NCBI GenBank assembly: GCA_966212235.1
Contig: CBIHPP010000002.1
Coordinates: forward strand, 291,499 to 355,498
DNA from: an uncultured Niastella sp.
GTDB lineage: Bacteria; Bacteroidota; Bacteroidia; Chitinophagales; Chitinophagaceae
DNA length: 64,000 nucleotides
Direction: 5' to 3'
The notes under the pieces were generated by a model that saw only the letters and a list, made by a program, of their open reading frames with translations, was not told the DNA's origin and searched no databases. Position numbers and translations under genes: made by a program. Within the stretch, counting starts at the first letter, position 1. Each line of letters opens with the position of its first letter. This document shows, in pieces, positions 3,256 through 21,182 of this stretch.

Positions 3256-5547
3256 ATGCGAGCAATAATTTACCTGGCAATACCTTTTTGTTGTGTTTTT
3301 TCTCAGGCACAAATAGTTCAAAAAGCAGTGGATCCAGTAGATTTTGTAAACCCCTTAATGGGAACCGATTCAAAGCCCGGACTTTCTAACGGAAATACTT
3401 ATCCTGCCATAGCACTTCCCTGGGGAATGAATTATTGGGTACCACAAACCAACACCATGGGTAGCGGCTGGACGTATCAATACAATGCCGATAAGATCAG
3501 GGGATTTAAACAAACCCATCAACCTTCACCCTGGATAAATGATTACGGGCAATTCAGTATAATGCCTGTTACCAGGAAAATGCAATTTGACCAGGATTCG
3601 CGCGCAAGCTGGTTCTCCCATAAAACAGAAAGATCTACTCCCTATTATTATAGTGTTTACCTGGCAGATCCTGATGTAACTGCAGAAATTACCCCCACCG
3701 AGAGGGCCGCCCAGTTACGGTTTACATTTCCTGCATGTGACAGTTCCTTTATAGTGGTTGATGCTTTTGACAAAGGCTCATATATAAAGATCATTCCTGC
3801 CGAAAGAAAAATTATAGGCTATACATCAGCCAATAGCGGGGGAGTACCTTCCAATTTCAAAAATTACTTTATTATTTCTTTCGATAAAGATTTTTCAATA
3901 GCGCATACCTGGCACGATAAAACACTGGCAAAGGACACCCTTGAATTACAGTCGAATCATACAGGTGCTATCATTGGATTTAAAACACGAAAAGGTGAAC
4001 AGGTGCATATAAAAACAGCCTCTTCGTTTATCAGCTATGAGCAAGCCGAATTAAATGCACAACGTGAGCTTGGAAATGATTCATTTGATAATACCTGTAA
4101 CAAAGGCCGTCAGGTCTGGAATCGCGAATTAGGCAGGTTGCAGGCAGAAGGCGGTACGGAAGAACAATTAAAAACATTTTATTCCTGTTTATACCGGGTG
4201 CTGTTGTTTCCACGAAAGTTTTTTGAATATAACAAGGCTAATGAAGCGATTCATTACAGCCCATACAATGGTCAGGTATTACCTGGTTATATGTTTACCG
4301 ACAATGGCTTTTGGGATACATTCAGGGCCGTGTTTCCGTTTTTTACACTGATGTATCCAACCCTGAACAGCCAGATCATGCAGGGGTTGGCAAACACCTA
4401 TAAGGAAAGCGGATGGTTGCCCGAATGGGCCAGTCCGGGCCATCGTGATTGCATGGTAGGCTCTAACTCGGCTTCGTTGATTGCCGATTCTTACATCAAG
4501 GGAGTACGCGGATATGACATCAATACTTTATATGAGGCTGTTTTAAAGAATACAGAGCATGAAGGTCCGCTTTCATCAGTGGGAAGAAAAGGCGTGCAGT
4601 ATTATAATGAATTGGGATATGTTCCTTATGATGTAAAGATCAATGAAAATGCTGCCCGTACTTTGGAATATGCGTATGATGATTTTACAATTGCTCAATT
4701 AGCCAAATCATTAAACCGGCCAAAAGAAGAAATTGATCGCTTTGCCCGCCGTAGCATGAACTATCGTAACCTTTTCGACAGTACAACCCGCCTGATGCGT
4801 GGCAAAAATAAAGACGGTCGTTTTCAATCTCCATTCAATCCATTCAAATGGGGAGATGCTTTTACCGAAGGTAACAGCTGGCATTACACCTGGAGTGTTT
4901 TTCACGATGTACAGGGATTGGCTGGCCTGATGGGTGGGTCGAAAATGTTTGCGAAAATGCTTGATTCGGTATTTGCGCTTCCCCCTGTATTTGATGAAAG
5001 TTATTATGGAGGTGTCATTCATGAAATTCGCGAAATGCAGATCATGAATATGGGGCAATACGCCCATGGTAACCAGCCAATTCAGCACATGATCTATTTA
5101 TACAATTATGCAGGCGAACCATGGAAAACACAATACTGGGTGCGCCAGGTAATGGATAAATTATATCACTCCGCACCGGATGGATATTGTGGCGATGAAG
5201 ACAATGGCCAAACCTCGGCCTGGTATATTTTTTCAGCTATGGGTTTTTACCCGGTTTGTCCAGGTACAACCCAATACGTTTTTGGAACACCGCTGTTCCG
5301 TAAAATGACCGTCACTTTTGAAAACGGACGTAAGCTGATTATACAGGCGCCTGCTTCAGATAAGAACAATTATTATATACATAACATTTCCTTGAACGGA
5401 GTTAAGCATACGAAGAACTGGATCGATCATAGCCAATTACAAAAGGGAGGTACATTGATGTATGATGTAAAAAAAGAGCCCTCCTATACCAGAGGAATTA
5501 CACCGGCCGCATTTCCATTTTCTGTATCTCCGGCATCTGTCCGGTAA
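3256..5547 (+). CDS. GH92 family alpha-mannosidase
   Basis: VNPLMGT, GNTYP..ALPWGM, FWDTFR, EGNSWHY, HGNQP and DEDNGQTSAWY motifs; signal peptide. Confidence 0.93.
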   Translation: MRAIIYLAIPFCCVFSQAQIVQKAVDPVDFVNPLMGTDSKPGLSNGNTYPAIALPWGMNYWVPQTNTMGSGWTYQYNADKIRGFKQTHQPSPWINDYGQFSIMPVTRKMQFDQDSRASWFSHKTERSTPYYYSVYLADPDVTAEITPTERAAQLRFTFPACDSSFIVVDAFDKGSYIKIIPAERKIIGYTSANSGGVPSNFKNYFIISFDKDFSIAHTWHDKTLAKDTLELQSNHTGAIIGFKTRKGEQVHIKTASSFISYEQAELNAQRELGNDSFDNTCNKGRQVWNRELGRLQAEGGTEEQLKTFYSCLYRVLLFPRKFFEYNKANEAIHYSPYNGQVLPGYMFTDNGFWDTFRAVFPFFTLMYPTLNSQIMQGLANTYKESGWLPEWASPGHRDCMVGSNSASLIADSYIKGVRGYDINTLYEAVLKNTEHEGPLSSVGRKGVQYYNELGYVPYDVKINENAARTLEYAYDDFTIAQLAKSLNRPKEEIDRFARRSMNYRNLFDSTTRLMRGKNKDGRFQSPFNPFKWGDAFTEGNSWHYTWSVFHDVQGLAGLMGGSKMFAKMLDSVFALPPVFDESYYGGVIHEIREMQIMNMGQYAHGNQPIQHMIYLYNYAGEPWKTQYWVRQVMDKLYHSAPDGYCGDEDNGQTSAWYIFSAMGFYPVCPGTTQYVFGTPLFRKMTVTFENGRKLIIQAPASDKNNYYIHNISLNGVKHTKNWIDHSQLQKGGTLMYDVKKEPSYTRGITPAAFPFSVSPASVR

Positions 5548-5560
5548 GAATTATAACCAT

Positions 5561-6577
5561 ATGAAGAAGATATCTATAAAGGATATTGCACAAATGGCGG
5601 GCGTTGCATCGTCTACCGTATCATTTGTATTGAACGGCAAGGCACGCAAAATGCGCATTAGCGAAACTGTAGAGAAGCGGGTGTTTGAAGTCGCCCGCAA
5701 TGCAGGTTATTATCCCAATCAGCTTGCCATTAGTTTACGGACCGGTAAATCAAAAACGCTGGGCCTTATTGTTGAAAACATTGGCAACATTTTTTTTGCC
5801 ACTTTAGCAAAAACGATTGAAGAAGAGGCTGAACAGTATGGTTACCGGGTTGTGTATTGCAGCACAGAGAATAATGCATCGAAAGGAAAAGAATTGATCA
5901 ATATGCTTTCACAACGGCAGGTAGATGGATACCTGATCACCCCGGCGCCGCATATGGAAGCGGATATTCAGCAACTGGTACAACTACAACGGCCTGTTGT
6001 TTTAATTGACCGGTATTTACCGAATGTAGATGCCTCTCATGTGTTGGTTAATAATGCAGAAGCAGTAGCGCAGGGGATGTCGCATTTATTTTCACAGGGC
6101 TATCGTGAAATAGGATTTGTTACGGTAGACCTTGATATTATGCAAATGGAGCAACGGCTCGATGGTTATATTGGCGCGCTTTCTAAAGAAGGGATCCGGT
6201 TGAATAAGGATATTATTCTAAAAATCCCATATACACATCAACGGGAAGAAGCTGTTGAGCTCATTGCAGCTCTATTGGAAAACAACCCCCAGTTGGATGC
6301 ATTGTTTTTTGCAACCAATTACCTTGGAATATTAGGCCTGGAAAGCATCAACCGGCTAAAAATGGCAATCCCACAGGATATTGCTGTCATTAGTTTTGAC
6401 GATCACGACATTTTCAGGTTGTATCCTCCCGGTATTACAAGCATTCAACAGCCTGTTGAAGCAATTGCCAAAAAAGCGGTAGGGCTATTAATGGAGCAAT
6501 GCGAAAATTCGGAAATTAAATTTGCAAAGACTGAGGTAGAACTTGCGGCAAAATTGATTGTGAGAGGGTCTACCTAA
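5561..6577 (+). CDS. LacI family transcriptional regulator
   Basis: ISIKDIAQMAGVASSTVSFVLNG HTH; C-terminal sugar-binding domain (IAVISFDD, SIQQP). Confidence 0.95.
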   Translation: MKKISIKDIAQMAGVASSTVSFVLNGKARKMRISETVEKRVFEVARNAGYYPNQLAISLRTGKSKTLGLIVENIGNIFFATLAKTIEEEAEQYGYRVVYCSTENNASKGKELINMLSQRQVDGYLITPAPHMEADIQQLVQLQRPVVLIDRYLPNVDASHVLVNNAEAVAQGMSHLFSQGYREIGFVTVDLDIMQMEQRLDGYIGALSKEGIRLNKDIILKIPYTHQREEAVELIAALLENNPQLDALFFATNYLGILGLESINRLKMAIPQDIAVISFDDHDIFRLYPPGITSIQQPVEAIAKKAVGLLMEQCENSEIKFAKTEVELAAKLIVRGST

Positions 6578-6643: not shown

Positions 6644-8704
6644 TCAATGGATAACCGGTAATGTAATAGTAAATGTTGCGCCTTGTCCAATTTCACTTTT
6701 CGCTGTAATAATTCCATCGTGGTGATCAACGATCTTTTTACATAATGCCAGGCCAATGCCGGTGCCACTATATGTTTTCAGGTTATTCAATCTTTGAAAT
6801 ATGATGAAGATCTGTTCTGCATACTGTTGTTCAAAGCCAATTCCATTATCTTGAAACACCAATTGTACATATTTACCCGCTTTCTTTAAACGCGAATGTT
6901 CCTGTACCTCTCCGGAAGAAAGCATTTTTGCTGTTATGGTTATCTGAGAATTTCCTTCTGAAAATTTCAATGAATTACTGATTAAATTCGAAAAAAGCTG
7001 GTGTAATTGTAATGGAATGCCCTTGATTTCCGGCAAATCGGTATACGTAATAATTGCTTGTTTTTGTTCAATGAGTAATTCAAAGTCAGATAATACGTCC
7101 ATCAATATTTTGTTTAAATCAGTATTTACAAATTGTTCACCTGTTTTGGTAAGTCGCGAGTAGTTGAGCACATCATTAATGAGTGAGGACATACGTTTGG
7201 CGGAGGAATATATTTTATTAAAGTATTTTTCAGCGATCTCATTGTCATGAAGATGCTCTTTAACCATGTCAGCAAAGGTTTGAATTTTGCGAAGGGGCTC
7301 TTGTAGATCATGACTGGCGATATAGGCAAATTGTTCCAGTTCATGATTTGATTTTTCAAGCGCTGAATTAGAAGTCAGTAATTCACTGGTCCGTGCGCGA
7401 ACCATTTTTTCCAATTCGTCTTTGGCTTTCTTTTGGTCCGTAATATCCAGCACAGTTCCAAGTAATCTAACAGGGATGTGTTTTTTATCATAAATGGTAG
7501 TTCCATTCACCCGTATCCATCGCTCTGAGTTATCGGGTCTGATGATACGGGCTTCGTAAGATATCTTTCCCGTTATTAAGGCTGTTTGAATGGACTGTTC
7601 TACCCACGGCCGGTCCGCTGAATGAACAAGGTCTAAAAAGCGCACCTTGCTCCATTGCTGTGTTTTTGCATAGCCCAGAATTTTTCGGTGTTCAGGTGAA
7701 GTGGTGGTTAAACCTGTTGTTAAATCGAGGTCCCACATACCCAGTTCTGTTATTTCTACAGCCAAACGCAAACGTTCTTCACTTTCCCGAATTAATTGCT
7801 CCGCTTTCTTTTGCGCTGTAATATCGTGGGCGATTTTTGATGCGCCGATAATGATTCCTTTGCTATTTTTAATGGGTGATATGCTTAACGAAATATCTAA
7901 CAACCTCCCATCTTTAGTAATCCGTTTGGTTTCGAAGTGATCGATCCTTTCTCCTCTTTTTAGCCGGGCCAGGATTTTAGTCTCTTCATCCAACCTGTCT
8001 ACAGGAATGATTTTTGTTATACGTTTTCCGATCATTTCCTGGGCTGTATAACCAAAGATTCTTTCCGCGCTATTGTTCCAACTGGTGATGGTACCCTCCA
8101 GTGTTTTACTGATTATGGCATCGTCAGACGATTGAATAATAGCTGCAAAATGTTCCTTTCTTTCTTCGATGTTTTTTGTGTCTGTAATATCAACCAGCAT
8201 ATTAATAGCCCCAATTACTTTTCCTGTAGTATTAAAAAAAGGTCTTGGGTAATTCATAATATTCCGTTTCTGACCATCCGGACGTTCAACAATAATTTCT
8301 ATATCATCGAGTACTTTTCCTTCCTTAAGTGCAATTGCCATGGGGCATTGATCCCGTGACAGGGGAGTGCCATCTGCTTTAAAAATTTTCCAGGAACCGC
8401 ACCATGTGTCTTTGCCTATTTCCGGTTTACGGCCCCATAGAACAGCTGCGGACTGGTTGTACGTCAAAATATATCCATTGGCGTCACAGGTGTAAATAGC
8501 ACCCGGTAGTGTCTGAATGAGTTGCTGATAGGGGATATCGATTTCTTCAAAATCATCAGAAGTTTGATTGGCGCCAACAGTTAAAAAACTTTCAATACTG
8601 TTATTCATATCTGTATGTGAACTGTTTCCTATAGGATGGGGCACAGGGGGCTTGTCTTCATTATTGGTTATTATTTCAAACTGAGGCATTTCTTTTGATT
8701 TCAT
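6644..8704 (-). CDS. Cytoplasmic PAS/PAC (three domains) sensor histidine kinase
   Basis: PAS repeats; H-box ASHDLQEPLRKI; N-box NLISNSLKF; DNGIGF and GTGIGLALCKKIV; no TM segments seen. Confidence 0.93.
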   Translation of the reverse strand: MKSKEMPQFEIITNNEDKPPVPHPIGNSSHTDMNNSIESFLTVGANQTSDDFEEIDIPYQQLIQTLPGAIYTCDANGYILTYNQSAAVLWGRKPEIGKDTWCGSWKIFKADGTPLSRDQCPMAIALKEGKVLDDIEIIVERPDGQKRNIMNYPRPFFNTTGKVIGAINMLVDITDTKNIEERKEHFAAIIQSSDDAIISKTLEGTITSWNNSAERIFGYTAQEMIGKRITKIIPVDRLDEETKILARLKRGERIDHFETKRITKDGRLLDISLSISPIKNSKGIIIGASKIAHDITAQKKAEQLIRESEERLRLAVEITELGMWDLDLTTGLTTTSPEHRKILGYAKTQQWSKVRFLDLVHSADRPWVEQSIQTALITGKISYEARIIRPDNSERWIRVNGTTIYDKKHIPVRLLGTVLDITDQKKAKDELEKMVRARTSELLTSNSALEKSNHELEQFAYIASHDLQEPLRKIQTFADMVKEHLHDNEIAEKYFNKIYSSAKRMSSLINDVLNYSRLTKTGEQFVNTDLNKILMDVLSDFELLIEQKQAIITYTDLPEIKGIPLQLHQLFSNLISNSLKFSEGNSQITITAKMLSSGEVQEHSRLKKAGKYVQLVFQDNGIGFEQQYAEQIFIIFQRLNNLKTYSGTGIGLALCKKIVDHHDGIITAKSEIGQGATFTITLPVIH

Positions 8705-9203: not shown

Positions 9204-9575
9204 ATGAATGATACGTTTGAAAAATTGGAAGGGTTAACCGATCATGTGAAGGAGTATATAAATACCAGGGTTGAAATAACCAAACTACACCTTGCCGAAA
9301 AAACATCCATGGTGATAAGCAATCTGATCGCAGTTACCATTGTAGTAGTGTTATTTTTATTTGTTATTGTTTTCGGAAGTATTGCTGGTGCCTGGGCGTT
9401 GAGTGAGTGGATTGGGAAATCATATTCAGGCTTTTTGATTGTAGCAGGTTTCTATTTGTTATTGGGCATTATAATATGGATGGCAAAAGACAAACTTATT
9501 CGTTTTCCGGTAATGAATGTTATCATAAAGCAATTACAGAAAAAGGATGATGACGATGATATTAACCAGGTTTAA
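9204..9575 (+). CDS. Two-TM membrane protein of the holin-X / phage-holin-like family (not evidence of a phage)
   Basis: KEYINTRVEITKL N-terminus and two hydrophobic helices; typical YtxH neighbour. Confidence 0.75.
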   Translation: MNDTFEKLEGLTDHVKEYINTRVEITKLHLAEKTSMVISNLIAVTIVVVLFLFVIVFGSIAGAWALSEWIGKSYSGFLIVAGFYLLLGIIIWMAKDKLIRFPVMNVIIKQLQKKDDDDDINQV

Positions 9576-9756
9576 TCTGTTAAGCCTGCTTCTATCGATC
9601 GGCACTTTATACTTCATTTGTAAAGCCTGCAGGGCTTTAGCCACTTTTTTGTTCTTCCAACAAAGCCACATAACCCTAACATTCTCCTTTGTAAGTCTAT
9701 TAGTATAGTATAAGAACATGTGATGTTATATCGTTATATAGCGGAGCGTATTAAAA

Positions 9757-9802
9757 ATAAATTAAAGTTGTTATTGTAATTAAAATAACAACTTTAATTT
9801 AT
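9757..9802. repeat. Perfect 19-bp inverted repeat with 8-nt loop
   Basis: ATAAATTAAAGTTGTTATT-gtaattaa-AATAACAACTTTAATTTAT. Confidence 0.9.
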
Positions 9803-10311
9803 ATAGCTAATTGTTATGTATATTATTAAATGAACACCTGTGGAATATGAATATATAACGGAGAATATAATTTGAAATAAATATTGTTCATTGATTTTTA
9901 TTGAATCAAATTTTTTCTTTTTACTTTTAAGCAGATTCCCTGGTAAAAACTATTACAAAAACAGTAGCACCTTAACGTAAGGAGATTTATATAATCAAGA
10001 TTCCTTTTACTCCTGTAACTGAAAAAGAAAGTAAAATTTGAATAGTTAGTGCTTCTGTTTTTTAAGACTCATAGTAGATATTCGGCCTGATTGTATTCAT
10101 AACAATATGAATAATTTGCCGTTTTCTAATTAATGTGACCCTCCAACTGTTGCAGCTTTTTGCAAAAATTAATATTTATGTAGGCAGATTATTTATTATA
10201 CGCATGTGTTGAATACATGGGTATTTATATAATCGTTACTCATACGAATCGATATGCATAATATGGCTTCCGGCGATGCGGCAGCCATGATTAACCATTA
10301 AACACCTAAGT

Positions 10312-10575
10312 ATGAAAAAAATTAAGGTTATATTAAATTCTATTGCCATTACTATTGCTATTGCCGGTGCTTTTGCTACCCGTTTTTGTATGCAAAATGA
10401 CCAAACCCAATATATTCCGGTAAAGGATACTTATACACCAGTTGGTGATTTTGGTACTGACTATAACTGCTTTGATTCTCAAAATGTATGTACGTTCATT
10501 CTTCCAGATTCAGTTGCCCGCCCCAAAGAATTTTTACCATATCGCAAAGGACAGTTTGTGCCAATAAAGAAATAG
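10312..10575 (+). CDS. Small secreted Cys-containing protein (DUF6520-like), paralogue 1
   Basis: Signal peptide ending AGAFA; C-x6-C core; clear similarity to 11819..12079. Confidence 0.8.
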   Translation: MKKIKVILNSIAITIAIAGAFATRFCMQNDQTQYIPVKDTYTPVGDFGTDYNCFDSQNVCTFILPDSVARPKEFLPYRKGQFVPIKK

Positions 10576-11234
10576 TTCTGTTTGCAGCGCAAAAATTTTA
10601 TTTTGAAATAATACATAAAGGCCTAATCGAAAACATGTAGCAAAGCGTACATGAATACATGTATAAATAACCTTTAATCTGAGAGAGGAAAGAGAAAAAT
10701 TAGCTACCATCGTTTTATAGTAAATTTTTCATTAAAAAAGCAGGTCGTCTTAAATGGCCGATTTTTTGTAGTTTGATGGCTGCAAGGCGAGCGTTTTGTC
10801 GCTAAAGTGCATTAGCAGTATATTTTGATGGTAATTCACCCTAAAATTGAATAATAAATGAATGGGATTTTCCCAAAGTTTATTCCCACCATTAAACGAA
10901 CTATAAAAAAATGTAATAAGTATGTTTCGCTAAACCAGATTCACAATTGTGCAATAAATATTTAAACAATTTGTTTTAAGTAAGAATATTTTTTGCATAA
11001 ATTGTAAAGTAGATTTTAGTTTTTTAAATAAGCTAAAAATAACTGATATAAATTTTTGAACATAGTCTTTTAGTATTTAACTTTAAGTTCTACCATCGCC
11101 CTCAATTCTACCAAATCTGCCTTATCCCCCTTAATGCCTTATTCTAATCTACCATCTAACGTATAGCAGGATCAGTGAATTTTGGGATGCTTCCATTCAT
11201 CAATAACTGTTGCCCCTTATAACCCTTTCATATT

Positions 11235-11666
11235 ATGAAAAGAAAGATAATTATTGAAATAATATCTTCCTTATTGATATTGCTTTTTTTGTATGCAAGC
11301 GTTAGCAAATGGCTTGCTTTTAAACTTTTTATTGGTGAAATGAATAACCAGCCCTTTCCAAACTGGATTACCCCATTCCTGGTATGGAGTATTCCATTTA
11401 TTGAAGTATTGATTGCCGTTGGATTGATATTTGAGAAAACCAGAGTACCTGCATTATATGCGTCCTTGTTTCTGATGCTGGCATTTACGGTATATACAGT
11501 GGCTATATTGTTACATGCGTTTAAATATATACCCTGTTCCTGTGGTGGAGTAATCCGAAAGCTCACCTGGCCTCAGCATCTTTTCTTTAATTTATTTTTT
11601 GTAGGGATTTCAATACTGGGCATCATGCTTAAGAAGCGTGTTCCTGTTCATGCTGTAGACATATAA
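11235..11666 (+). CDS. MauE/DoxX family redox-associated membrane protein
   Basis: Four hydrophobic helices; LFLYASVSK, IPFIEVLIA and IPCSCGGV motifs. Confidence 0.88.
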   Translation: MKRKIIIEIISSLLILLFLYASVSKWLAFKLFIGEMNNQPFPNWITPFLVWSIPFIEVLIAVGLIFEKTRVPALYASLFLMLAFTVYTVAILLHAFKYIPCSCGGVIRKLTWPQHLFFNLFFVGISILGIMLKKRVPVHAVDI

Positions 11667-11818
11667 AATGGCACAGATCAAATACGAATAACTTTTTCCC
11701 GTTTTAGCTGCGTCACTTATTCCGGAGTAAGTGTACACCTATGTAACGGGTAAGGGTAAGCCGAAAACCTGAATAATAGAGTAGGCACAACACGTCAACC
11801 ATTAATGTAAGGACAAGT

Positions 11819-12079
11819 ATGAACAAAGTTAAACTGGCTTTTATTGCTATAGCAATTCTAACTGCGGTTGGTGGCGCTTTTGCTACCAATTCCTGTGTTC
11901 AATGTGAACACTCGACTCAATATTATTATAATGGAATTGGTTATGTTGAAGTTGGTGAGTATGGAGCGGATTTTGATTGTTTTGTTACCGGCGGTACCTG
12001 CACCTATTACAAACCTGATCCTATTGGGCAACCCAATGTATATGCTCCCTGTCATCTAGGGGCGTATGTGCCGTTGTAA
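11819..12079 (+). CDS. Small secreted Cys-rich protein (DUF6520-like), paralogue 2
   Basis: Signal peptide ending GGAFA; five Cys; TQY..VG..G.D..C-x6-CT..PD pattern shared with paralogue 1. Confidence 0.8.
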   Translation: MNKVKLAFIAIAILTAVGGAFATNSCVQCEHSTQYYYNGIGYVEVGEYGADFDCFVTGGTCTYYKPDPIGQPNVYAPCHLGAYVPL

Positions 12080-12169
12080 TCGTACTAAAGCTCTGTTTAA
12101 TTGATTAAACAAATGTTATTGCATTTGTATTCCCAATCAATTATAAAAAGTAAAAAAACATTCCTATAG

Positions 12170-12199
12170 GCCGGTCATTTATTTAATGGCCGGCTTTTT
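12170..12199 (+). terminator. Intrinsic terminator between the convergent DUF6520-like and SusD genes
   Basis: GCCGGTCATT-tattt-AATGGCCGGC followed by T5. Confidence 0.75.
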
Positions 12200-13562
12200 A
12201 TTTAGGTCTTTCGTTTTGTTTATACTGTCCCATTACAACTGCATCCGGTGGAATTGGTAAGGCATAAAGTGGACTATTAACCGGTAATTCAAAATCCTGG
12301 TTGTTGAAGCTCCGTTTTGGCTTTATATTGGCATTTTCCAGGTTCAGGCGACGAATATCCGTCCACCGAATGCCCCGGCAGGGCATTTCCTTACGTCTTT
12401 CAATCAGTATTGTATTTAATGCCTGTTCCTGTGTAGATGCAGTAAATGGAACAAAGGTCCCTGTTTTCCACCTTTGTATCAGCAAGGTATTCAGGTCCTG
12501 CATAGCGTCATTTAAATTGCCGGCCCGCGCCCGGCATTCTGCCCGTATCAAATGGGTTTCATCGGTTGCCAGTCCGGTAAAAGCCTGTATCAGGCCGGTA
12601 TAACTTCCTTTAAAATTAATTCTACCCGGGTTTACCAAAAAGAATAGGGTACGCCGCAGATCGTTCATTGCATAAGAGTTATATAATGTGGAATCAACGG
12701 CTCCATAACCTAATACGCCTTTAAGCACATTGGTTTCAACAAACTTGCTTTGGTACATGGTTTCTACATTCGTCTTGTCAAAGGGTCTAGGTAAACTCGC
12801 ATCTCTCGTATTATAATCTATCAGTGCTCTATACAGTTGTAAACTGCTGTCTGCATAGGCTCCTGCTTTATCATACTGGCGCATGCTTAAATATACCCTG
12901 GCCAGCTGGGCAAAGGCAGCCGGTTTATTGGGGCGGGTTCTATAACCGGTTATAGAGTCTGCTAAAAGTGTTTTTGCTTCTTGCAAGTCGATTATAATTT
13001 GCGTATAGGTTTGCTCAAGCGTTGAACGCTTTATTGATTCATCTACATTAGGTGTTAATTTTAACGGAATACCCAGGTCTTCATTCGCCGTGGAGGCATT
13101 ATAAGGTAGAGCAAATACCTGGGCCAGGTTGTAAAAAGCGTAGGCCCTTGTAAACAAGGCAGATCCCTTTATGTTATTCCATTGTTGCCAGTTATCTTGT
13201 GTAATTGTCACTTTTTTCAGCTCATCCAGCACCACATTGGCATACAATACCTGTTGATAAGGAGTATTCCAGTCTGAAACATTACCTTCTCCTTTAAAAA
13301 TATCAGAAGCCCATATGTATGCATTTTGTTCTTTTGTGCCGAGATTTTGCCATAAAGATTGGAGAAGATGATAATTATCCGCAGATAATTCGCCCAATAC
13401 AGGGGTTAAATTTAGAGCAGCATCATTGTCGAGCAACGCCTGAAAATCTTCCAGGGTCGTTGGCACAAACAGGTCCGACTTGGGTCTTTCATCCAGAAAT
13501 TCCTTTTTGCTACAGCTTAAAATACTAAAAAGAAATACAGATATGTACAAGCATACTTTCAT
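12198..13562 (-). CDS. RagB/SusD family lipoprotein
   Basis: Lipobox ILSC; RPNKPAAFAQLARVYL and ERRKE...RWTDIRRLN motifs; follows SusC. Confidence 0.93.
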   Translation of the reverse strand: MKVCLYISVFLFSILSCSKKEFLDERPKSDLFVPTTLEDFQALLDNDAALNLTPVLGELSADNYHLLQSLWQNLGTKEQNAYIWASDIFKGEGNVSDWNTPYQQVLYANVVLDELKKVTITQDNWQQWNNIKGSALFTRAYAFYNLAQVFALPYNASTANEDLGIPLKLTPNVDESIKRSTLEQTYTQIIIDLQEAKTLLADSITGYRTRPNKPAAFAQLARVYLSMRQYDKAGAYADSSLQLYRALIDYNTRDASLPRPFDKTNVETMYQSKFVETNVLKGVLGYGAVDSTLYNSYAMNDLRRTLFFLVNPGRINFKGSYTGLIQAFTGLATDETHLIRAECRARAGNLNDAMQDLNTLLIQRWKTGTFVPFTASTQEQALNTILIERRKEMPCRGIRWTDIRRLNLENANIKPKRSFNNQDFELPVNSPLYALPIPPDAVVMGQYKQNERPK

Positions 13563-13579
13563 TAGAAAAGGTTTTCTGC

Positions 13580-16500
13580 TTAAAAATCAATTTTTAACCC
13601 TACTGCAATCGTTCTGGGATTGGGTGTTCCTGAAATAAAATCTGGATCTATTCCGTTATTATTGGCTTTCCAAAGAATTCCCAGGTTATTAGCATAGATA
13701 TATACCCGGAGCTGGTTCATAGGCAACCATTTTGTATTGTTTTTGTCCATTTGATAACTCAACTGAATATCCTGTAACCTTATGTGATCACCCTTTTCAA
13801 TCAGTACATCTGAGTATTTATAAAAAGTGCTTCGGCTAGCACCGGAGTTATAAATTATGGATGGTACGGATGTATAATTCTCGTCCCCGGGATTTTGCCA
13901 TCTCAATGCATAATCAGAATGCCCTGGTGCCCCGTTACTAAACAGATCAAAATAATTGATAGAATTTCTTCTGAAATAATACCCCATTTTATAGGTAATG
14001 GTAAAGGACAACTCCAGTTGTTTATAGCTGAAATTATTTCTCAGGCTACCAAAATATGTGGGATTCGCAGGGCCTCTATATAATAAGTCAGAAATATCTG
14101 CAGAGTTTGTAATATCGCTATAATTAGTACTTTCTTTTTTATTAAATAAACCTTGCGGATCGCCAGTTTTTGGATCCAGGCCCATCCATTTAAAGCTGAA
14201 AATGGAATAAAGTGGTTTACCTTCTATGGGGCTCAGGAATTGCGGATCGCAATAATACCAGATGGGGCTGCTTTGTTGCAGTTTGTAACTGGTTAATTTA
14301 TCTGTATTATAGCTTAACAGAAAAGTAGTGTGCCATTTAAAACGTTTATTGATATTTTTCGAACGGAGTATAATATCCACTCCTTTTCCCTTCATATCAG
14401 CAGTATTACCACGAAATAAAGAAACGCCGGTAGTAGGGTCCATTGGACTATTGCCGATCAGATCGGTTCCCTTTCGGGTATAATACTCGAGGCTGCCTTC
14501 AATAACACAATTCTTTAAGGCGAAATCAATCCCGAAATTGACCATATGATTTTTTTCCCAGCGCAACGAAGGGTTCGGCGGATTTACGATAGAGGCTGGT
14601 AGTAAATTCCAATTATTTATCGCATCATTACGCACTGTTGTATAGGCTGATACCGTTTTATCAACATTGCCTTTGTATCCATTTGAAACCCGCAACTTCA
14701 GATAAGGCAACCAACCAATATGATAAAAGTTTTCCTGGCTCATATCCCAACTGGCGCCTACAGACCATAAGGGTACCCCTTTCTGGTTCGTGCTTACGCC
14801 AAACAGGTTCGATTCATCCTTGCGAACACTACCAGATAATACATATCGCCTTTGAAAAATGTATTTGGCATTTAGGTAGTAAGATATGTATCGGTCAGTT
14901 TCGTTTCTATTGAGGTTTTTGAAATCTATTTTTCTGGAGATAAAAGGTGCATAATACAGCGGGAAAGCACTGTCGTAGTTGACAATGTTGGTGGTTGGCA
15001 TATCTTTATTGTACCCGTATAAGCGAAGTGTTTCAAGAAAGGTTTTTATTCCCCTTACTTCTGCGCCTGCCATGGCCATGATCTGGTGATGTTTGCTTTG
15101 TTTGTGATTGTACCAACTACGGTCATAATTAATTTGAAATCGTGTATTGTGTGCTTCGTACTTGATGGCGCTCTGATCTAAGATCCCGCCCAATGGAACA
15201 CGCCTCACAACCTGGCCGGAACTAGTATCTGTAAACTGGTTAATATAATTCCGGGTATAATAGGTTTGCTGGCTTTTATAATCTTCCTGTTCAATATATC
15301 CCTTATTGTATTGGTAATAGATAGTAGCGTTTAGCCCTTTTAAGATCGTATATTTTGCATCGGTATTGATCCGGTAATCTGTTGTTTTTGTACTGTTGTC
15401 ACTATACTTAAGTTCGTTATACGGTTTGTAATCCCAATCCAGCACCGCTTTGCCGGCAGTATCTTTATATGGTTGCCTTAAGTCTCGCGATACTGTTAAT
15501 CCGTTTCCCAAGTCATCAACCAGATCGGAATACGGGTATATAATATTTGACGATTCAGTGTTATTGTTTCGTGCTCTTGATTCTGTATAAATAATACCGG
15601 TATTGAGCTCCAGTTTCTTTTTCAACCACGAAAATGAATTATTCGCTGTCAGGGTTAAGCGGTCAAACTGGTTTCTAACCAGGTTATCCAGGTTTTTATC
15701 GTAACCTAAGGATAAGTAATAATTATTATTACTACTGCCGCCGCTGGCGTTTAAGGCATATTGTTGATTAACACTGTTGCGGTAGAAGTATTTCTCCAGA
15801 TCTTTTCTTTTATCCTGGCCTCTTAACTCATTTAACTGTTCTTCGGCTTCAGTAGATGAGATCACTCTTTTCTTTTCCTTGTACATTATTTCCACCGCTG
15901 GTGATAGTACATCCCGCTTGGGGGATGTTTCTTTATTATCATAAAAACCTTGGCTAAATAAGAACCTTTCAACATCGATATAATCTGAAGAGCTCAATAT
16001 CGGTTTATAATACAGATCAGGCTTTTGTCCTACCGTAACATTGCTATTTATCGATAACTTAAGAGGCTGGTTAAACTTGCCTTTTTTAGTAGTTATAACA
16101 ATAACACCATTACCAGAATATGCGCCCCAGATAGAGGCGGCATCCGCATCTTTTAAAACTGTTATGCTTTCTACATCATTGGGGTTAATATTATTGATAT
16201 CGCCTGCGTAGGGAAAATTATCAACTACAATTAACGGGTTGGGGTTGGCATAAATGGTGGTTCGGCCTCTGATGGAGAGGTTCGACTGGTTTGTGGCCGG
16301 ATTTACATTCTTATTAAATATCAACCCACTGGTGATGCCCTCTAACCGGTCGAGGATATTGGTAGAAACACGGCGGTTGACCAGTTCATTATCGATCTTC
16401 ACAAATGAGCCCGGCGATTTATCTTTCGATATCTTCTGGTAACCGGTAGAAACTACCTGAATCTTATTCAGTTCGCTGATATGTTGTTTTAGCTGGATAT

Positions 16501-17032
16501 TTAATTCCGGTTCGCCCTGCCAGCTAGCTTCTTCGGGTTCATAATTGATACTGGTAACAACAATGTTTATATCAATTTCACTAACGTCATTCAGTCTGAA
16601 TTCGCCATTTTCGTTGGTGCTGGTTTGCTGGTTGCTGCCTTTCACCGTAATGGTAGCGCCTGGTACAGGTTCGCCCTGTTCATTAATGATCTTGCCCTTA
16701 ATGTTTGCCTGTTTGGTAGCGGTATTTGTTTGTTTACCTCTGGGGATGATGGTTATAGCCTTGTCTATAATGGTATAGGTGCAGGTCTGATATTTAAAAT
16801 ATTCATCAAGCAGTTCTTCAACAGTTCCATTGGTGATATGAATGCTTACAGGCTTTAATTTGGCTGAGATGGAATTCGAGTTGAATATGGTATAACCCAC
16901 CTGCTTTTCCAATACTTTGCGGATATCGCTAATGGTTGCATTCTTTTTTGAGAATGTGATCTGTGCAAGTGTGGATACACTCAGTAGTATACAAGCAATG
17001 ATTAGAAAAGCAGTTATGTGTTTCATAATCAA
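13580..17032 (-). CDS. SusC/RagA TonB-dependent transporter with N-terminal STN (signalling) extension
   Basis: STN and carboxypeptidase-regulatory-like domains; plug motif INPNDVESITVLKDADAASIWG...NGVIVITTKKG; NPSLRWEK; C-terminal Phe. Confidence 0.95.
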   Translation of the reverse strand: MIMKHITAFLIIACILLSVSTLAQITFSKKNATISDIRKVLEKQVGYTIFNSNSISAKLKPVSIHITNGTVEELLDEYFKYQTCTYTIIDKAITIIPRGKQTNTATKQANIKGKIINEQGEPVPGATITVKGSNQQTSTNENGEFRLNDVSEIDINIVVTSINYEPEEASWQGEPELNIQLKQHISELNKIQVVSTGYQKISKDKSPGSFVKIDNELVNRRVSTNILDRLEGITSGLIFNKNVNPATNQSNLSIRGRTTIYANPNPLIVVDNFPYAGDINNINPNDVESITVLKDADAASIWGAYSGNGVIVITTKKGKFNQPLKLSINSNVTVGQKPDLYYKPILSSSDYIDVERFLFSQGFYDNKETSPKRDVLSPAVEIMYKEKKRVISSTEAEEQLNELRGQDKRKDLEKYFYRNSVNQQYALNASGGSSNNNYYLSLGYDKNLDNLVRNQFDRLTLTANNSFSWLKKKLELNTGIIYTESRARNNNTESSNIIYPYSDLVDDLGNGLTVSRDLRQPYKDTAGKAVLDWDYKPYNELKYSDNSTKTTDYRINTDAKYTILKGLNATIYYQYNKGYIEQEDYKSQQTYYTRNYINQFTDTSSGQVVRRVPLGGILDQSAIKYEAHNTRFQINYDRSWYNHKQSKHHQIMAMAGAEVRGIKTFLETLRLYGYNKDMPTTNIVNYDSAFPLYYAPFISRKIDFKNLNRNETDRYISYYLNAKYIFQRRYVLSGSVRKDESNLFGVSTNQKGVPLWSVGASWDMSQENFYHIGWLPYLKLRVSNGYKGNVDKTVSAYTTVRNDAINNWNLLPASIVNPPNPSLRWEKNHMVNFGIDFALKNCVIEGSLEYYTRKGTDLIGNSPMDPTTGVSLFRGNTADMKGKGVDIILRSKNINKRFKWHTTFLLSYNTDKLTSYKLQQSSPIWYYCDPQFLSPIEGKPLYSIFSFKWMGLDPKTGDPQGLFNKKESTNYSDITNSADISDLLYRGPANPTYFGSLRNNFSYKQLELSFTITYKMGYYFRRNSINYFDLFSNGAPGHSDYALRWQNPGDENYTSVPSIIYNSGASRSTFYKYSDVLIEKGDHIRLQDIQLSYQMDKNNTKWLPMNQLRVYIYANNLGILWKANNNGIDPDFISGTPNPRTIAVGLKIDF

Positions 17033-17230
17033 AACCCCTCCTTGCGAATACTAAGTGACAGTACCCCTTGCTTTGAGACCTTTATTTTGTGTAAAAATAA
17101 AAATAGTCAACCGCATTCCCGCACAATCGGAAAAAAGTTGACTAAATACACCTTTTCGCAATTAAGGCGACCATCTTTAGTATCCGGCTAATAAAATTAC
17201 ACTTTAGCCTTGAAGGTAGGGAGAAATATT

Positions 17231-17294
17231 ACAAAAAAAAATTAAGCCACCGTACTGCAACCATGAGCTTGAAGGCTCATGGTCGCAGGGTAGC
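17231..17294 (-). terminator. Sense-strand terminator between fecR and susC
   Basis: On the minus strand CTGCGACCATGAGC/GCTCATGGTTGCAG stem (one G-U pair) followed by TTAATTTTTTTTT. Confidence 0.65.
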
Positions 17295-17420
17295 TTTTTA
17301 GCTCAACACTGCTCATAATGTACCATGGAAGAACAGTGTTAGATGTGGTTTAATGATTAACGGAAATATTATTACAGCTTTTAGAAGTAGGTATTACTTG
17401 TGCTATTAATTAATTGATAG

Positions 17421-18713
17421 TTATGATGTTACTATAATAGTTCTATCCTTTTCGTTTAATCGCGCCTTTATATTATTGGCATTCAGCAGTTTTATAATGT
17501 TTCCAATGGTAGCGGCACGGGGAAGCTTACCCTCAAAAGAAACATCGGGCTTTTTCCCTTCGTATTTAATATTTACGTCATACCAACGGGATATTTGACG
17601 TAATGTATATTCAATATCAGGACCGCCGACCGGAATAAATCCGCTTGTCCATCCAACTACATCCTCTGCATCAACATTTTGAACCATTATATTTCCTTCT
17701 TTCAGCTTGGCCTGTTCGCCGGGCCGGATAGTTTGGAAATTATTTCCGGATGTCACTTTTACTTTCCCTTCTATTAAGGTCGTTTTAATTGTCCCTTCTT
17801 CCGAATAAGCCATTACGTTAAAATGCGTTCCCAATACTTCCACCTCATTCTTATTCCCGGCCGGGGTGTTTATTTTAACGATAAATGGTGTTTTGGCAAT
17901 TTTTCCTTTACGGCCAGCTACATCTTTACTTGTTGTATTCTGTTCCTGAGGATTTACTTCAAAATAAGCTTCGCCGGTGAGTTCAACAATTCGCTCGTTC
18001 CCGGCGAAGGCTATAGGAAAACGCAATGATGAAGCCGCATTCAACCATACTTTACTTCCGTCAGGTAAAGTAATCTGGTATTCGCCTCCCCTTGGGGTGG
18101 TAACTGTGTTGTATAAATCCTGCCCAATTGAAGAGTTTTTAGCATCCGGCTTCTTGTTATATATTAACCGTCCATCAGTCTTGGTTATCTGTGCCTGACC
18201 CTGATCTGCTACATTTCCGTTCTGCAAATTGGTTAGTACAATTGCTGATCCATTGGCCAGGGTCAATATGGCTTTATTACTACCGGGAACGATCTGGCTC
18301 GTTATTCCGGCCTTGTTACTATCTGTTTTAGCAGTTTTATTTTGAGATGACTGGCTGTAATAATACCAGGTACCAGCAGAAATAAGCAAAATAACAGAGG
18401 CTGCCGCTGCAATTTTGCCAAATGGTATTCTGAACGATTTCTTTTCAGGGTACAGGTCCAGTAATTTGGCTCCTTCCAGTTCGGCTTCATTAATTTTTTG
18501 CAGCGTCTTTTGCCAAATAGCTTCGCTATCAGTGCTTGCATAGATCTTCAATTTTTCCCGCAAAACATCTTTATCGGTGATCTGCTGAAAAAATGAATTA
18601 TTATGCTCAGCTTCCGCTAACCATTCTTTAAGTTCCCCTTCTTCCTCTGGACTTAACCTCTCCTCCAGGAACTTTTCGATCAGACTTGTGATTCTATTTA
18701 CCTTTTCCTGCAT
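17421..18713 (-). CDS. FecR family anti-sigma factor
   Basis: N-terminal EEEGELKEW, a TM helix, TPRGGEYQITLPDGSKVWLNAASSL, VEVLGTHFNV. Confidence 0.95.
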   Translation of the reverse strand: MQEKVNRITSLIEKFLEERLSPEEEGELKEWLAEAEHNNSFFQQITDKDVLREKLKIYASTDSEAIWQKTLQKINEAELEGAKLLDLYPEKKSFRIPFGKIAAAASVILLISAGTWYYYSQSSQNKTAKTDSNKAGITSQIVPGSNKAILTLANGSAIVLTNLQNGNVADQGQAQITKTDGRLIYNKKPDAKNSSIGQDLYNTVTTPRGGEYQITLPDGSKVWLNAASSLRFPIAFAGNERIVELTGEAYFEVNPQEQNTTSKDVAGRKGKIAKTPFIVKINTPAGNKNEVEVLGTHFNVMAYSEEGTIKTTLIEGKVKVTSGNNFQTIRPGEQAKLKEGNIMVQNVDAEDVVGWTSGFIPVGGPDIEYTLRQISRWYDVNIKYEGKKPDVSFEGKLPRAATIGNIIKLLNANNIKARLNEKDRTIIVTS

Positions 18714-18836
18714 AGTTAATGGTATTTAAAACTTGAAAGTCACCTAACTCTCTGAGCCTTTAAAACCTTACTTATATAAAAACAACCAAAGGAGGTTTTT
18801 GACAAAAAAAATTTAAAAAATAAATAAAGGTGTTGG

Positions 18837-19484
18837 TTATTCAGCACATATAGGGGAAACTACTATGTTTTCGATCATCCGACCGTATTTTTGCTTATTT
18901 GCTGTTGAGCCGTTTAAGCAAAAGCTTATAAATACGGCTACAAGTAATCTTTTTTTCAGCAGTTGAAGGGCGCGCCTTTTCTGATTTAATACATTCCGCG
19001 GCGTAATATGTAGTTTTTCGGCTACCTCATCGGTACTGGCATCTTCAAAATAGATCAGTTTAAAAATTGTTTTGCATTTATTGGGCAGGGTTTCGATCAT
19101 GGGATAGATCATTCTTAAAAGCTCGCCCTCTATCATATCGGTAATAACATCCTGATCGTCTTTGTCTCTCTGGAGATACGACAATTCACTTTGTGAGGCT
19201 GTTTTTCTTTGTATATGCCTCAGGTAGTTGAGGCTTGCGTTGCGGGTGGTAACAAATAAAAATGCTTTTATGTGTTCTTCGGTCTGAAAAACATCATGAC
19301 GTTGCCATAGTTTTGTAAAGGATTCAGAAACAATATCTTCTGCCTGTTCTTTGTCCTTTACCAGTTGTATGGCGCAAGTAAAAAGTAGTCTGTTGTAGTT
19401 CTCGAAAATAACCTGAAAGGCCCTACTATTCCCTTGATTAAATGCTGTAAGCCAATCATCCTTTTCCAAAAATTGCTTCTTCAT
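18837..19484 (-). CDS. ECF RNA polymerase sigma-70 factor
   Basis: AEDIVSESFTKLW, KAFLFVTTRNASLNYLR; region 4 LPNKCKTIF...EVAEKLHI. Confidence 0.93.
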   Translation of the reverse strand: MKKQFLEKDDWLTAFNQGNSRAFQVIFENYNRLLFTCAIQLVKDKEQAEDIVSESFTKLWQRHDVFQTEEHIKAFLFVTTRNASLNYLRHIQRKTASQSELSYLQRDKDDQDVITDMIEGELLRMIYPMIETLPNKCKTIFKLIYFEDASTDEVAEKLHITPRNVLNQKRRALQLLKKRLLVAVFISFCLNGSTANKQKYGRMIENIVVSPICAE

Positions 19485-19852
19485 CGGGTTTCAATTTATG
19501 ATCATCTTATTATCGGGAACCTTTAGTTTGTAACATATCTTTATGAAACTCCGGTCCATTAACCGAAAGTTTATAATGATAAGGTTAGTGACTATCAATA
19601 AATTGCTGGTACAGGAATAACGATCCAGTTTCAAATAACGGAGGTTGCTATAATCAGAGTAGTCGTGGAACCAGAAAAGCGCGTTACCTGCCCATCCTTA
19701 AAGACAGCCAACGGCGGGATGCAAGTTTACAAAAATATATTAAAAAATCGCTTAAGTGTTTTTTCTAAGGGCGGATAAGTAATTCACCTGATTTCGCCAG
19801 TGAAAAAAACGGAACTGTTCATTGTCATCAAAAAGTAAAAATTTTAGGGAGG

Positions 19853-20662
19853 TCAGTATATGGAAAGGTAACGGCTGATCGATCTTTCAAAGAGAGCACG
19901 GGCGCCTTCAGCAATATTCATCCACTCAAAAGCTCCATACATAGCGTCGAATGGCAGGGGGTGCACTCGTTCATATATAAGTTCAATGTCTTTTTTGGGG
20001 AGGGGAATGTGATTGGGGTAACTATACATGAAGGCCATGTGCCGGCGGCTGGGGGCCACATAAATGCTGTCGCCGGTAAGTAAACAACCTGCTCTTCCAT
20101 GATCAGGTAAATGGAGTATGGTGCTTCCGGGAAAGTGTCCGCCTACGTGTACAATACTAATATTATCCCAAAGTGTTTTTATACTGCCCGACCACGATTC
20201 AATATATCCTCCCGGATCTTTGACCCACTCCCTATCATTGGCGTGTAAATAAATAGGACAGTCGAAAGCGGTAGCCCAGTCCTGCATTAAACTATAATAA
20301 TGCGGATGTGAAATAACAATGGCCCTGATGCCTCCCAGTGATCTGATAAAGGCAATGGTTTGATCGTCGATAAAAGGTAAACAATCCCATAATACATTGC
20401 CGGAAGAAGATAGAACCAAATGTGCCTTTTGTGCAATGGCAAATGCCGGCGTTATTCTTAAATCGTATATAGTAGATTGCAAGCGGGAAAAACGAATGCT
20501 GCTTTTGGCGGCTAGTTCATTATAACTTGTCCATATTTGTCCGGTAAAACCAGGAAACTGCCGGTCGTCGGCACAGATCTCGCACATAGTGGGAATAATA
20601 GAAGTACCATACCGCACACCACAGGTATGGCATATGTTCTTTGCCGAAGGCGAAATAATCAT
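19853..20662 (-). CDS. Metallo-beta-lactamase fold hydrolase with N-terminal Cys motifs
   Basis: CHTCG...CEICADDRQ; ISHPHYY; GGHFPGS; LLTGDS. Confidence 0.85.
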   Translation of the reverse strand: MIISPSAKNICHTCGVRYGTSIIPTMCEICADDRQFPGFTGQIWTSYNELAAKSSIRFSRLQSTIYDLRITPAFAIAQKAHLVLSSSGNVLWDCLPFIDDQTIAFIRSLGGIRAIVISHPHYYSLMQDWATAFDCPIYLHANDREWVKDPGGYIESWSGSIKTLWDNISIVHVGGHFPGSTILHLPDHGRAGCLLTGDSIYVAPSRRHMAFMYSYPNHIPLPKKDIELIYERVHPLPFDAMYGAFEWMNIAEGARALFERSISRYLSIY

Positions 20663-21182
20663 AGAAAAGTATTTGCGTAGAATTGCTACTATAGAAATGT
20701 CAGACCTTTAACCAACAGATGCTGCTGCCAGTGTTACGAATAATGATACTATGATATTATCCACTACAGGTGAGAATGTGCATCAATGTTTTCAGGGTTG
20801 CACAGACATTGCCGGATCGCATGTTCGATATTATCATGATATCAGGGTTTCTGATAATGCAAAGTTAATACCAGAAATTTTTTCTTATGAAATTGCAGAC
20901 AACGCCGTATAGATCAGGATCAAACATTTTTATATTGTTGTGCATGTGTTTTCACCTTTTCGCTGATGATGTTTTTTGCGTATATTTATAATTCACCAAA
21001 GAAAAGGAGGTATTCATGAAATCTACAGATCATTCATGGACACTTTCGGTTGGTATCGCCTAGCCGGGGTATGTTCCATCAAAATATCTGCTGACATAAG
21101 TCAGGAAGTCTCCCGATACATCGGGAGGCTTTTTTTATTCGCACCGCGTTCAAATTACAATGCACAACTTTTACCTTAGCGT

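Follow-up and report, generated by a model that had tools for sequence, protein, structure and literature searches.

A conserved cassette of a predicted MauE thiol oxidase, DUF6520 mini-proteins and a SusC/SusD importer in Niastella and other Bacteroidota

Introduction

In the hemophore system HasA-HasR-HasI/HasS, HasA binds haem and has its own type I exporter, and in the lasso-peptide clusters of the astexins and AtxE2 an isopeptidase is found together with a TonB-dependent transporter. SusCD transporters, in turn, have been studied almost wholly as glycan importers. Here we analyse a locus in which a transporter of this last type faces the genes of two tiny cysteine-bearing proteins of the DUF6520 family, A and B, and of a MauE-type membrane protein that lies between them. 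It belongs to a stretch of 64,000 nucleotides (the window, to which our coordinates refer) from an uncultured Niastella sp. (Chitinophagaceae, Bacteroidota; assembly GCA_966212235.1, contig CBIHPP010000002.1, positions 291,499 to 355,498 of the forward strand).

MauE has only recently been recognised as a disulfide-forming enzyme. E. coli dsbB mutants regain motility and PhoA activity when given MauEs from two other phyla, each Cys of the MauE CXC motif is essential for replacing DsbB, and the authors, who describe a generalist single-copy oxidase in phyla without DsbB or VKOR, expect MauE to work via a thioredoxin-fold carrier (Gonzalez et al., 2026; bioRxiv 10.64898/2026.03.05.709764).

An earlier look at the letters of the window (hereafter the sequence-only reading) had proposed a disulfide-peptide maturation system, in which MauE supports the oxidative folding of two secreted Cys microproteins. 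Our functional readings draw on genomic context and on the one preprint cited above. On this basis we lean towards the view that a dedicated DsbB-like MauE folds exported beta mini-proteins, and that these work with the facing SusCD transporter, which is controlled by an extracytoplasmic function (ECF) sigma factor and a FecR protein.

Results

The three genes have one orientation and the order A-MauE-B:

10312 to 10575, plus strand: open reading frame (ORF) A, DUF6520-A mini-protein of 87 residues (Pfam PF20130, 41.3 bits)
11235 to 11666, plus strand: MauE, a predicted four-helix membrane thiol oxidase of 143 residues (Pfam PF07291, 111 bits; function from the preprint)
11819 to 12079, plus strand: ORF B, DUF6520-B mini-protein of 86 residues (Pfam PF20130, 26.4 bits)

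Both families thus pass the profile search that the sequence-only reading had suggested, the Pfam gathering cut-offs being 25.4 bits for DUF6520 and 27 bits for MauE; an NCBIfam scan of the three proteins gave nothing beyond Pfam. The MauE match spans profile positions 2-127 of 128, and the CSCGG motif that had been noticed in this gene lies within IPCSCGGV, at residues 99-106. A and B were rightly taken for paralogues: they are 38% identical across 86 residues (BLASTP, E 5e-23). At 87 and 86 residues they also fall within the size of the short Bacteroidota proteins of the DUF6520 kind (about 80-100 residues), and like these they have conserved Cys and a hydrophobic signal at the N-terminus. 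There are three Cys in A (C26, C53, C60) and five in B (C26, C29, C54, C61, C78). That they are secreted, as had been supposed, is in keeping with the Sec-type signal peptides predicted for both, with an MKK or MNK n-region (K/R), a hydrophobic core of about 15 residues and an AFA|T end, which would leave mature proteins of about 63 residues each. In this signal region M1, K5, A12, A16, A20, A22 and T23 are almost invariant. The close homologues, 36 for A and 43 for B, are all Niastella-like.

Convergent with these genes stands an importer operon that the sequence-only reading did not describe and that is part of the same conserved unit:

12198 to 13562, minus strand: SusD-family lipoprotein of 454 residues (Pfam SusD-like_3, SusD_RagB)
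13580 to 17032, minus strand: SusC-family TonB-dependent transporter (Pfam CarbopepD_reg_2, Plug)
17421 to 18713, minus strand: FecR-type anti-sigma factor (Pfam FecR, FecR_C)
18837 to 19484, minus strand: ECF sigma factor (Pfam Sigma70_r2, Sigma70_r4_2)

The SusD-like and the Plug/CarbopepD_reg_2 domains lie in adjacent genes, which identifies a SusC/SusD pair. The SusC ORF is called from a TTG at 17032; an ATG two codons downstream, at 17026, is the likelier start. The FecR and ECF sigma genes adjoin the transporter as in FecA-FecR-FecI signalling, an arrangement kept in three other Niastella species. Indeed, the whole order A-MauE-B / SusD-SusC-FecR-ECF is kept in these three species at 60-75% protein identity, with an A-to-MauE spacer of about 660-810 bp among the Niastella genomes; N. 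vici and N. caeni, both culturable, carry this locus.

DUF6520 is rare, scoring above its cut-off in 5 of 301 Chitinophagales genomes and 16 of 401 Bacteroidota genomes, and a profile built from the homologues of A and B collects 177 clusters of proteins of 80-110 residues among 1.8 billion representative proteins. We cut 16 kb around 20 DUF6520 matches from 15 other genomes (8 genera, 5 families) and scanned these loci with a hidden Markov model of the MauE copies of the source genome and, for the other cassette parts, with phmmer. In 19 of the 20, and so in every genuine locus, the gene just 5' of the DUF6520 gene on its strand is MauE; the twentieth match (L031), a lysine/aspartate-rich protein in an unrelated context, is probably false. 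MauE usually ends 25-144 nt before the peptide gene. In the same 19 loci SusD and SusC converge just downstream of the peptide gene, and in 13 of them an S9 peptidase is encoded in between. The window cassette is thus the Niastella version of a Bacteroidota-wide cassette. The family-level co-occurrence looked for by the sequence-only reading is therefore there, while its picture of two peptides bracketing MauE applies to Niastella but not elsewhere, where a single peptide gene follows MauE. Since a genome of several Mb holds at most a dozen or so MauE genes, chance adjacency is expected at well under 1% per locus. It is hardly conceivable that the arrangement is accidental and the small ORFs non-functional: B barely passes Pfam (26.4 versus 25.4 bits), but the 177 clusters, an order and orientation kept across five families, the conserved Cys and the structured leader of B all speak against it.

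Phylogeny points the same way. In the MauE tree the window protein groups with DUF6520-cassette MauEs of other genera (L035, L032 and L028), and the 11 other short MauE paralogues of the source genome all lie on the far side of a 100/99 branch, so that MauE type tracks the peptide family and not the host. The SusD tree has the same deep split, with the window, L028, L032, L035 and cassette C13 of the source genome on one side and the rest on the other (SH-aLRT 100). Because the two trees split the cassettes alike, oxidase, mini-protein and importer are inherited together.

The source genome (9.77 Mb) holds 12 short, high-scoring MauE paralogues, nine in complete cassettes, two beside partial ones and one (C10) alone. 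A full sister cassette comprises a small AraC-type regulator, MauE, a thioredoxin-fold lipoprotein and one to three small four-Cys proteins with signal peptides, and, on the convergent side, an S9 peptidase, thioredoxin-fold proteins of about 430-450 residues, SusD and SusC. The lipoprotein has about 165 residues and a CPYC-type motif (Pfam Redoxin / Thioredoxin_2), and its gene directly follows MauE in seven sister loci. The small proteins match DUF6520 weakly (E 2e-3 to 3e-4), and DUF6520 thus represents a single branch of a broader group. The genome also encodes one VKOR and no DsbB; with VKOR present, the many MauE copies are not all required for general housekeeping folding. In several sister cassettes (C3:473597-475464, C22:96522, C11:150900 and neighbours) a family-2 glycosyltransferase is inserted between the regulator and MauE, as is a membrane protein of about 520 residues (at times about 1060-1090), a hint at possible glycosylation of some of the cassette peptides.

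The active-site motif of a DsbB-like, quinone-linked thiol oxidase is kept in the cassette MauEs. PCxCGG is invariant in 30 of 30 domains and reads PCSCGG in the window, where hydropathy places CSC (residues 101-103) in the helix 3-4 loop, flanked by the hydrophobic segments 70-96 and 114-134. K/R residues abound at both termini and in loop 2 of the window protein, a charge pattern from which the CXC loop is predicted to face the periplasm. With the tight pairing in 19 of 19 loci, a MauE type that follows the peptide, the invariant motif and the preprint, the proposal that MauE supports oxidative folding is strengthened, and its folding step, which we infer, is likely. The partnership with MauD that had been invoked alongside finds no counterpart here: neither a MauD-like protein nor another thioredoxin-fold partner is encoded within 9500-20700 of the window.

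It could be argued that MauE serves the thioredoxin-fold proteins of the importer side, or envelope folding in general, and that the role of the small proteins encoded beside it is a different one. DsbB-type oxidases usually act via a thioredoxin-fold carrier (bioRxiv 10.64898/2026.03.05.709764), and in many cassettes such carriers adjoin MauE or sit in the SusCD operon. However, the window and L016 have MauE and peptide genes without any thioredoxin-fold gene, MauE type follows peptide type, the Cys pairs of the peptides are conserved, and in most loci a mere 25-144 nt part MauE from the peptide gene. We regard this explanation as unlikely.

The Cys pairs were studied in an alignment of 134 DUF6520 family members. 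The inner pair, C-x6-C (C54 and C61 in B), is invariant (134/134). The outer N-terminal and C-terminal Cys occur together in 111 sequences and are jointly missing from 15; of the eight discordant sequences, six belong to the lineage of window A (Fisher p ~1e-13 for the association, uncorrected for relatedness). An outer pair gained or lost together and an invariant inner pair argue for two disulfides, one outer and one inner. In B these are predicted to be C29-C78 and C54-C61, with C26 as an extra residue, and in A the sequence suggests one conserved pair, C53-C60, and an orphan C26 whose C-terminal partner has been lost. This orphan is a Tyr in several A orthologues, and roughly one member in four shares the extra Cys of B, which creates a CxxC. 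The odd counts, which had been read as a sign of intermolecular bonds or of a metal ligand, are therefore lineage noise in a family whose Cys are paired, and that reading is not supported.

An AlphaFold2 model of B built on the 134-sequence alignment (mean predicted local distance difference test score (pLDDT) 85.5, about 90 across the mature part) shows a small beta domain of four strands, preceded by a signal helix and a linker. Foldseek found no relative of the model in the PDB (best E 2.7), so the fold may be new, a missing match being weak evidence for a protein of about 60 residues. A folded domain of this kind bears on the idea, raised by the sequence-only reading, of bacteriocin-like peptides. 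A and B are small, Cys-bearing, multi-copy and variable between lineages, as would be expected of bacteriocins or of precursors of ribosomally synthesised and post-translationally modified peptides matured by MauE. However, the window locus encodes no double-glycine leader, C39/ABC exporter, immunity protein, radical-SAM, YcaO or lanthionine enzyme, and none turned up when the 19 related loci were mapped gene by gene, a selection of their proteins being searched against family libraries. Moreover, A and B start with a Sec signal, their mature part is confidently predicted to fold, and an uptake receptor encoded beside a toxin would be self-harming. A bacteriocin-like role is accordingly very improbable.

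A conserved element of about 35 nt, identified through Rfam as the DUF805b leader, precedes nearly every cassette peptide gene; gene A is without it. In the window it is found before B:

11751 to 11787, plus strand: DUF805b leader pseudoknot (Rfam RF02914, 42.7 bits, E 3.7e-10)

This copy ends 31 nt before the ATG of B, scores above the gathering threshold of 35.6 bits and has both helices of an H-type pseudoknot that covary across 35 copies. Of 4 possible pairs the helices form 3.9 and 3.5 on average, and compensatory changes are frequent, for example CAGG/CCUG, GUGG/CCAC and GGGC/GCCC in one helix and GCC/GGC, GAUC/GAUC, GACU/AGUC and GACC/GGUC in the other, and the observed pairing was reached in 0 of 5000 shuffles. 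The Rfam model misses the GATC-stem variants of family f27, for which a regular expression and pairing counts were used. The source genome has 16 copies, some before unrelated lipoprotein or secreted-protein genes, which marks the element as a general Bacteroidota leader and not as a cassette-specific switch; it probably sets the translation level of B. We also considered the element as an ECF promoter and rejected this, since its spacing is about 12 nt and not 16-17 and both flanks covary as RNA helices. Some 7-9 kb beyond the right end of the window (C2:362168-364460), four tandem genes for signal-peptide proteins of 140-149 residues (the TYYFD... family) each have their own DUF805b leader 25-28 nt upstream. 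The DUF6520 match of locus L035 resembles proteins of this family.

Other elements lie around the small genes:

10263 to 10288, plus strand: hairpin ATGGCT...AGCCAT just 5' of gene A, read from the sequence
10293 to 10301, plus strand: AACCATTAA motif, 10 nt 5' of the A ATG, invariant in four Niastella genomes
10743 to 10759, plus strand: weak terminator-like hairpin and T run 3' of A
11797 to 11805, plus strand: AACCATTAA motif, 13 nt 5' of the B ATG, invariant in four Niastella genomes
12168 to 12196, no strand assigned: strong 12-bp hairpin terminator common to B and the convergent SusD gene

The stem of the first hairpin is retained despite base changes in the alignment with three other Niastella species. 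The motif that had been seen at the start of both ORFs is real, AACCATTAA being present before each of them; apart from it, the upstream regions of A and B have diverged from each other in the four Niastella genomes. Genome-wide the 9-mer occurs 237 times versus about 170 expected, which is not a notable enrichment, and we take it for a conserved local feature and not for a general signal. The terminator-like hairpin after A suggests that A is transcribed alone; none was seen in the interval between MauE and B. The 660-bp and 736-bp spacers that flank A contain no decayed remnant of an AraC, TlpA, S9 or propeller gene and no small ORF kept across all four Niastella species. Within the A-MauE spacer (10576-11234, 660 bp), which has no conserved ORF, long blocks are nonetheless identical in the four species, such as TACCATCGCCCTCAATTCTA and GTGAATTTTGGGATGCTTCCA, 40-145 nt 5' of MauE. 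Another block, CCGTTAATCATTAAACCACATCTA at 17345-17368 (minus strand, just past the fecR stop), is also kept in the four genomes; similar to the TTAACCATTAAACACC leader of gene A, it is followed by a hairpin and T run at about 17240-17285. In two Niastella species a gene for a response-regulator / cyclic-nucleotide-binding / Crp-type regulator is divergent from A (L037:7268-8308, L038:5747-6787); it is absent in N. caeni and in the window (compare 9576-10311).

Regulators vary from cassette to cassette, from AraC proteins with a PAS-like domain plus DUF7793 to LytTR, two-component and, in the window, ECF/FecR systems, and this variety fits a portable module plugged into differing control circuits. 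Upstream of many cassettes (L016, L017, L019, L021, L026, L027) there are a DUF7793 protein and a PAS-like AraC regulator, and divergent from them a protein of about 800 residues that combines an alpha-oxoamine synthase (BioF/serine palmitoyltransferase-like) with a GNAT domain (e.g. L021:2252-4687, L019:4899-6247). The loci closest to the window type, L032 and L028 (oriented 6794-7213 and 3944-5771), have LytTR regulators upstream of MauE (Pfam LytTR, 48 and 63 bits). LytTR regulators are typical of peptide-pheromone circuits in Firmicutes.

MauE itself also varies. In 13 related loci (within L018-L033, e.g. L019:6389-7900) it carries, beyond a fifth membrane helix, a fused domain of about 330 residues that has no sequence match in Pfam, NCBIfam or PDB. 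This domain models as a membrane-anchored periplasmic beta-propeller (pLDDT 83.8) that resembles BamB, DUF4221 and NHL propellers. A propeller-type domain is encoded as a separate gene of about 350 residues in L017, L034 and the C13 cassette of the source genome.

Discussion

Our analysis places the pair of peptide genes within a larger unit, kept in five Bacteroidota families, that includes an oxidase and an importer. In the mechanism that we propose, the window MauE would insert the disulfides of A and B, directly or via a thioredoxin-fold carrier encoded elsewhere. That it forms these disulfides is probable, and the carrier route is suggested by the sister cassettes of the same genome, which encode such a carrier beside MauE. 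Once folded, A and B would work with the SusC/SusD pair that converges on gene B, and a functional tie of this sort between mini-proteins and transporter is likewise probable.

What the tie consists of is much less certain. A and B could be a self-made ligand that SusD captures and SusC admits, upon which FecR would signal to the ECF sigma factor and the latter would induce the transporter operon. The importer operon of most relatives also encodes an S9 peptidase, thioredoxin-fold proteins or both, which could reduce and degrade the peptide after uptake and whose presence fits a ligand. We put forward only tentatively that the mini-proteins are recaptured in this way and reported via FecR and ECF sigma in the window, and the same caution applies to the general form of the loop, in which a private oxidase, release, and recapture by a matched SusC/SusD pair are coupled to a signalling arm that is ECF/FecR here and AraC or LytTR elsewhere.

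Alternatively, A and B could be periplasmic partners of the transporter, still folded by MauE, that hold imported cargo or bind the SusC plug, the SusC N-terminal domain or FecR. They carry a Sec signal and no outer-membrane export device is encoded with them, co-inheritance with SusD suits a partner as well as a ligand, and the MauE-propeller fusion of 13 relatives suggests a periplasmic assembly. However, the S9 peptidase and the thioredoxin-fold proteins are easier to explain by the breakdown of an incoming disulfide peptide, and no SusCD system is known with such a partner. We therefore hold this alternative, too, as a possibility of modest probability.

Several observations count against our proposal as a whole, or against its ligand step. 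The window locus has no type IX secretion C-terminal domain, lipobox or ABC exporter, and a dedicated outer-membrane exporter is encoded neither there nor in the related loci; with no encoded route across the outer membrane the mini-proteins may stay in the periplasm, which would exclude recapture. The N-terminal extension of SusC (about 85 residues), where a signalling domain would be sought, matches Pfam STN only weakly (positions 1-51 of 52, 15.1 bits, E 0.02, below the cut-off of 28.4). A promoter motif common to the peptide genes and the susC operon was sought and none could be demonstrated: the sole candidate, a TTAAYCATTAAAC-like block after fecR, could not be evaluated. A scan for the sigma-70 consensus did no better than shuffles. 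Lacking a thioredoxin-fold partner, an S9 peptidase and an AraC regulator, the window holds the least complete version of the cassette, the most stripped-down and yet with a second peptide gene. The 19 loci are not independent, 13 of them coming from one family, though five families are spanned. Finally, neither DUF6520 nor the combination of MauE with SusCD was the subject of any paper in our literature searches.

The component families are all catalogued, and the mau cluster already offers an example of a small protein with dedicated folding of the MauE type. For the cassette as a whole, and for the role of its mini-proteins, we found no description in the literature. The cassette connects a SusCD pair that has no sugar-cutting enzymes with a private MauE and a very small folded protein, and one soil genome carries about ten such cassettes that differ in peptide, oxidase and importer types. 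Should the mini-protein prove to be a ligand of the importer beside it, a major phylum would turn out to have a new type of peptide signalling or scavenging, and with it a set of orthogonal ligand-receptor pairs. Such a loop would amount to a peptide autoinducer circuit, or to a hemophore-like cycle of a protein scavenger, that is portable and present in many orthogonal copies per genome. On a more cautious reading, the locus offers a natural substrate for MauE and a testable role for DUF6520. The minimal Niastella version, A-MauE-B beside an ECF-controlled promoter, is a simple genetic starting point.

Comparison with known systems

The window protein shares with the MauE of Gonzalez et al. 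(2026) the four-helix membrane architecture and the CXC in the helix 3-4 loop. There, however, Bacteroidota and cassette paralogues go unmentioned, whereas here 12 short paralogues lie mostly in cassettes of peptide and importer.

The mau cluster, with MauE, MauD and MauA, is the closest precedent for the folding step: in both cases MauE is encoded beside a small disulfide-rich periplasmic protein, which in the mau cluster needs MauE, and the sister cassettes of the source genome have a thioredoxin-fold protein after MauE, in the manner of MauD. The window differs in having no MauD-like gene, in that the partner is a DUF6520 mini-protein of about 63 residues and not MauA, and in the tie to a SusCD importer.

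With the hemophore systems HasA-HasR-HasI/HasS the locus has in common a self-made small protein, a TonB-dependent receptor with an N-terminal extension and an anti-sigma/ECF pair, all at one locus. The receptor here is a SusC/SusD pair, in contrast, and no exporter is encoded at the locus.

The astexin/AtxE2 lasso clusters likewise combine a constrained self-made peptide with a TonB-dependent importer, FecIR-type regulators and an S9-family peptidase; the best NCBIfam match of the cassette S9 peptidase is the AtxE2 family, at 80 bits and thus far below the cut-off of 400. In the cassettes, however, the constraint would come from disulfides made, as we propose, by MauE and not from a lariat knot, and the peptidase that accompanies most of them is missing in the window.

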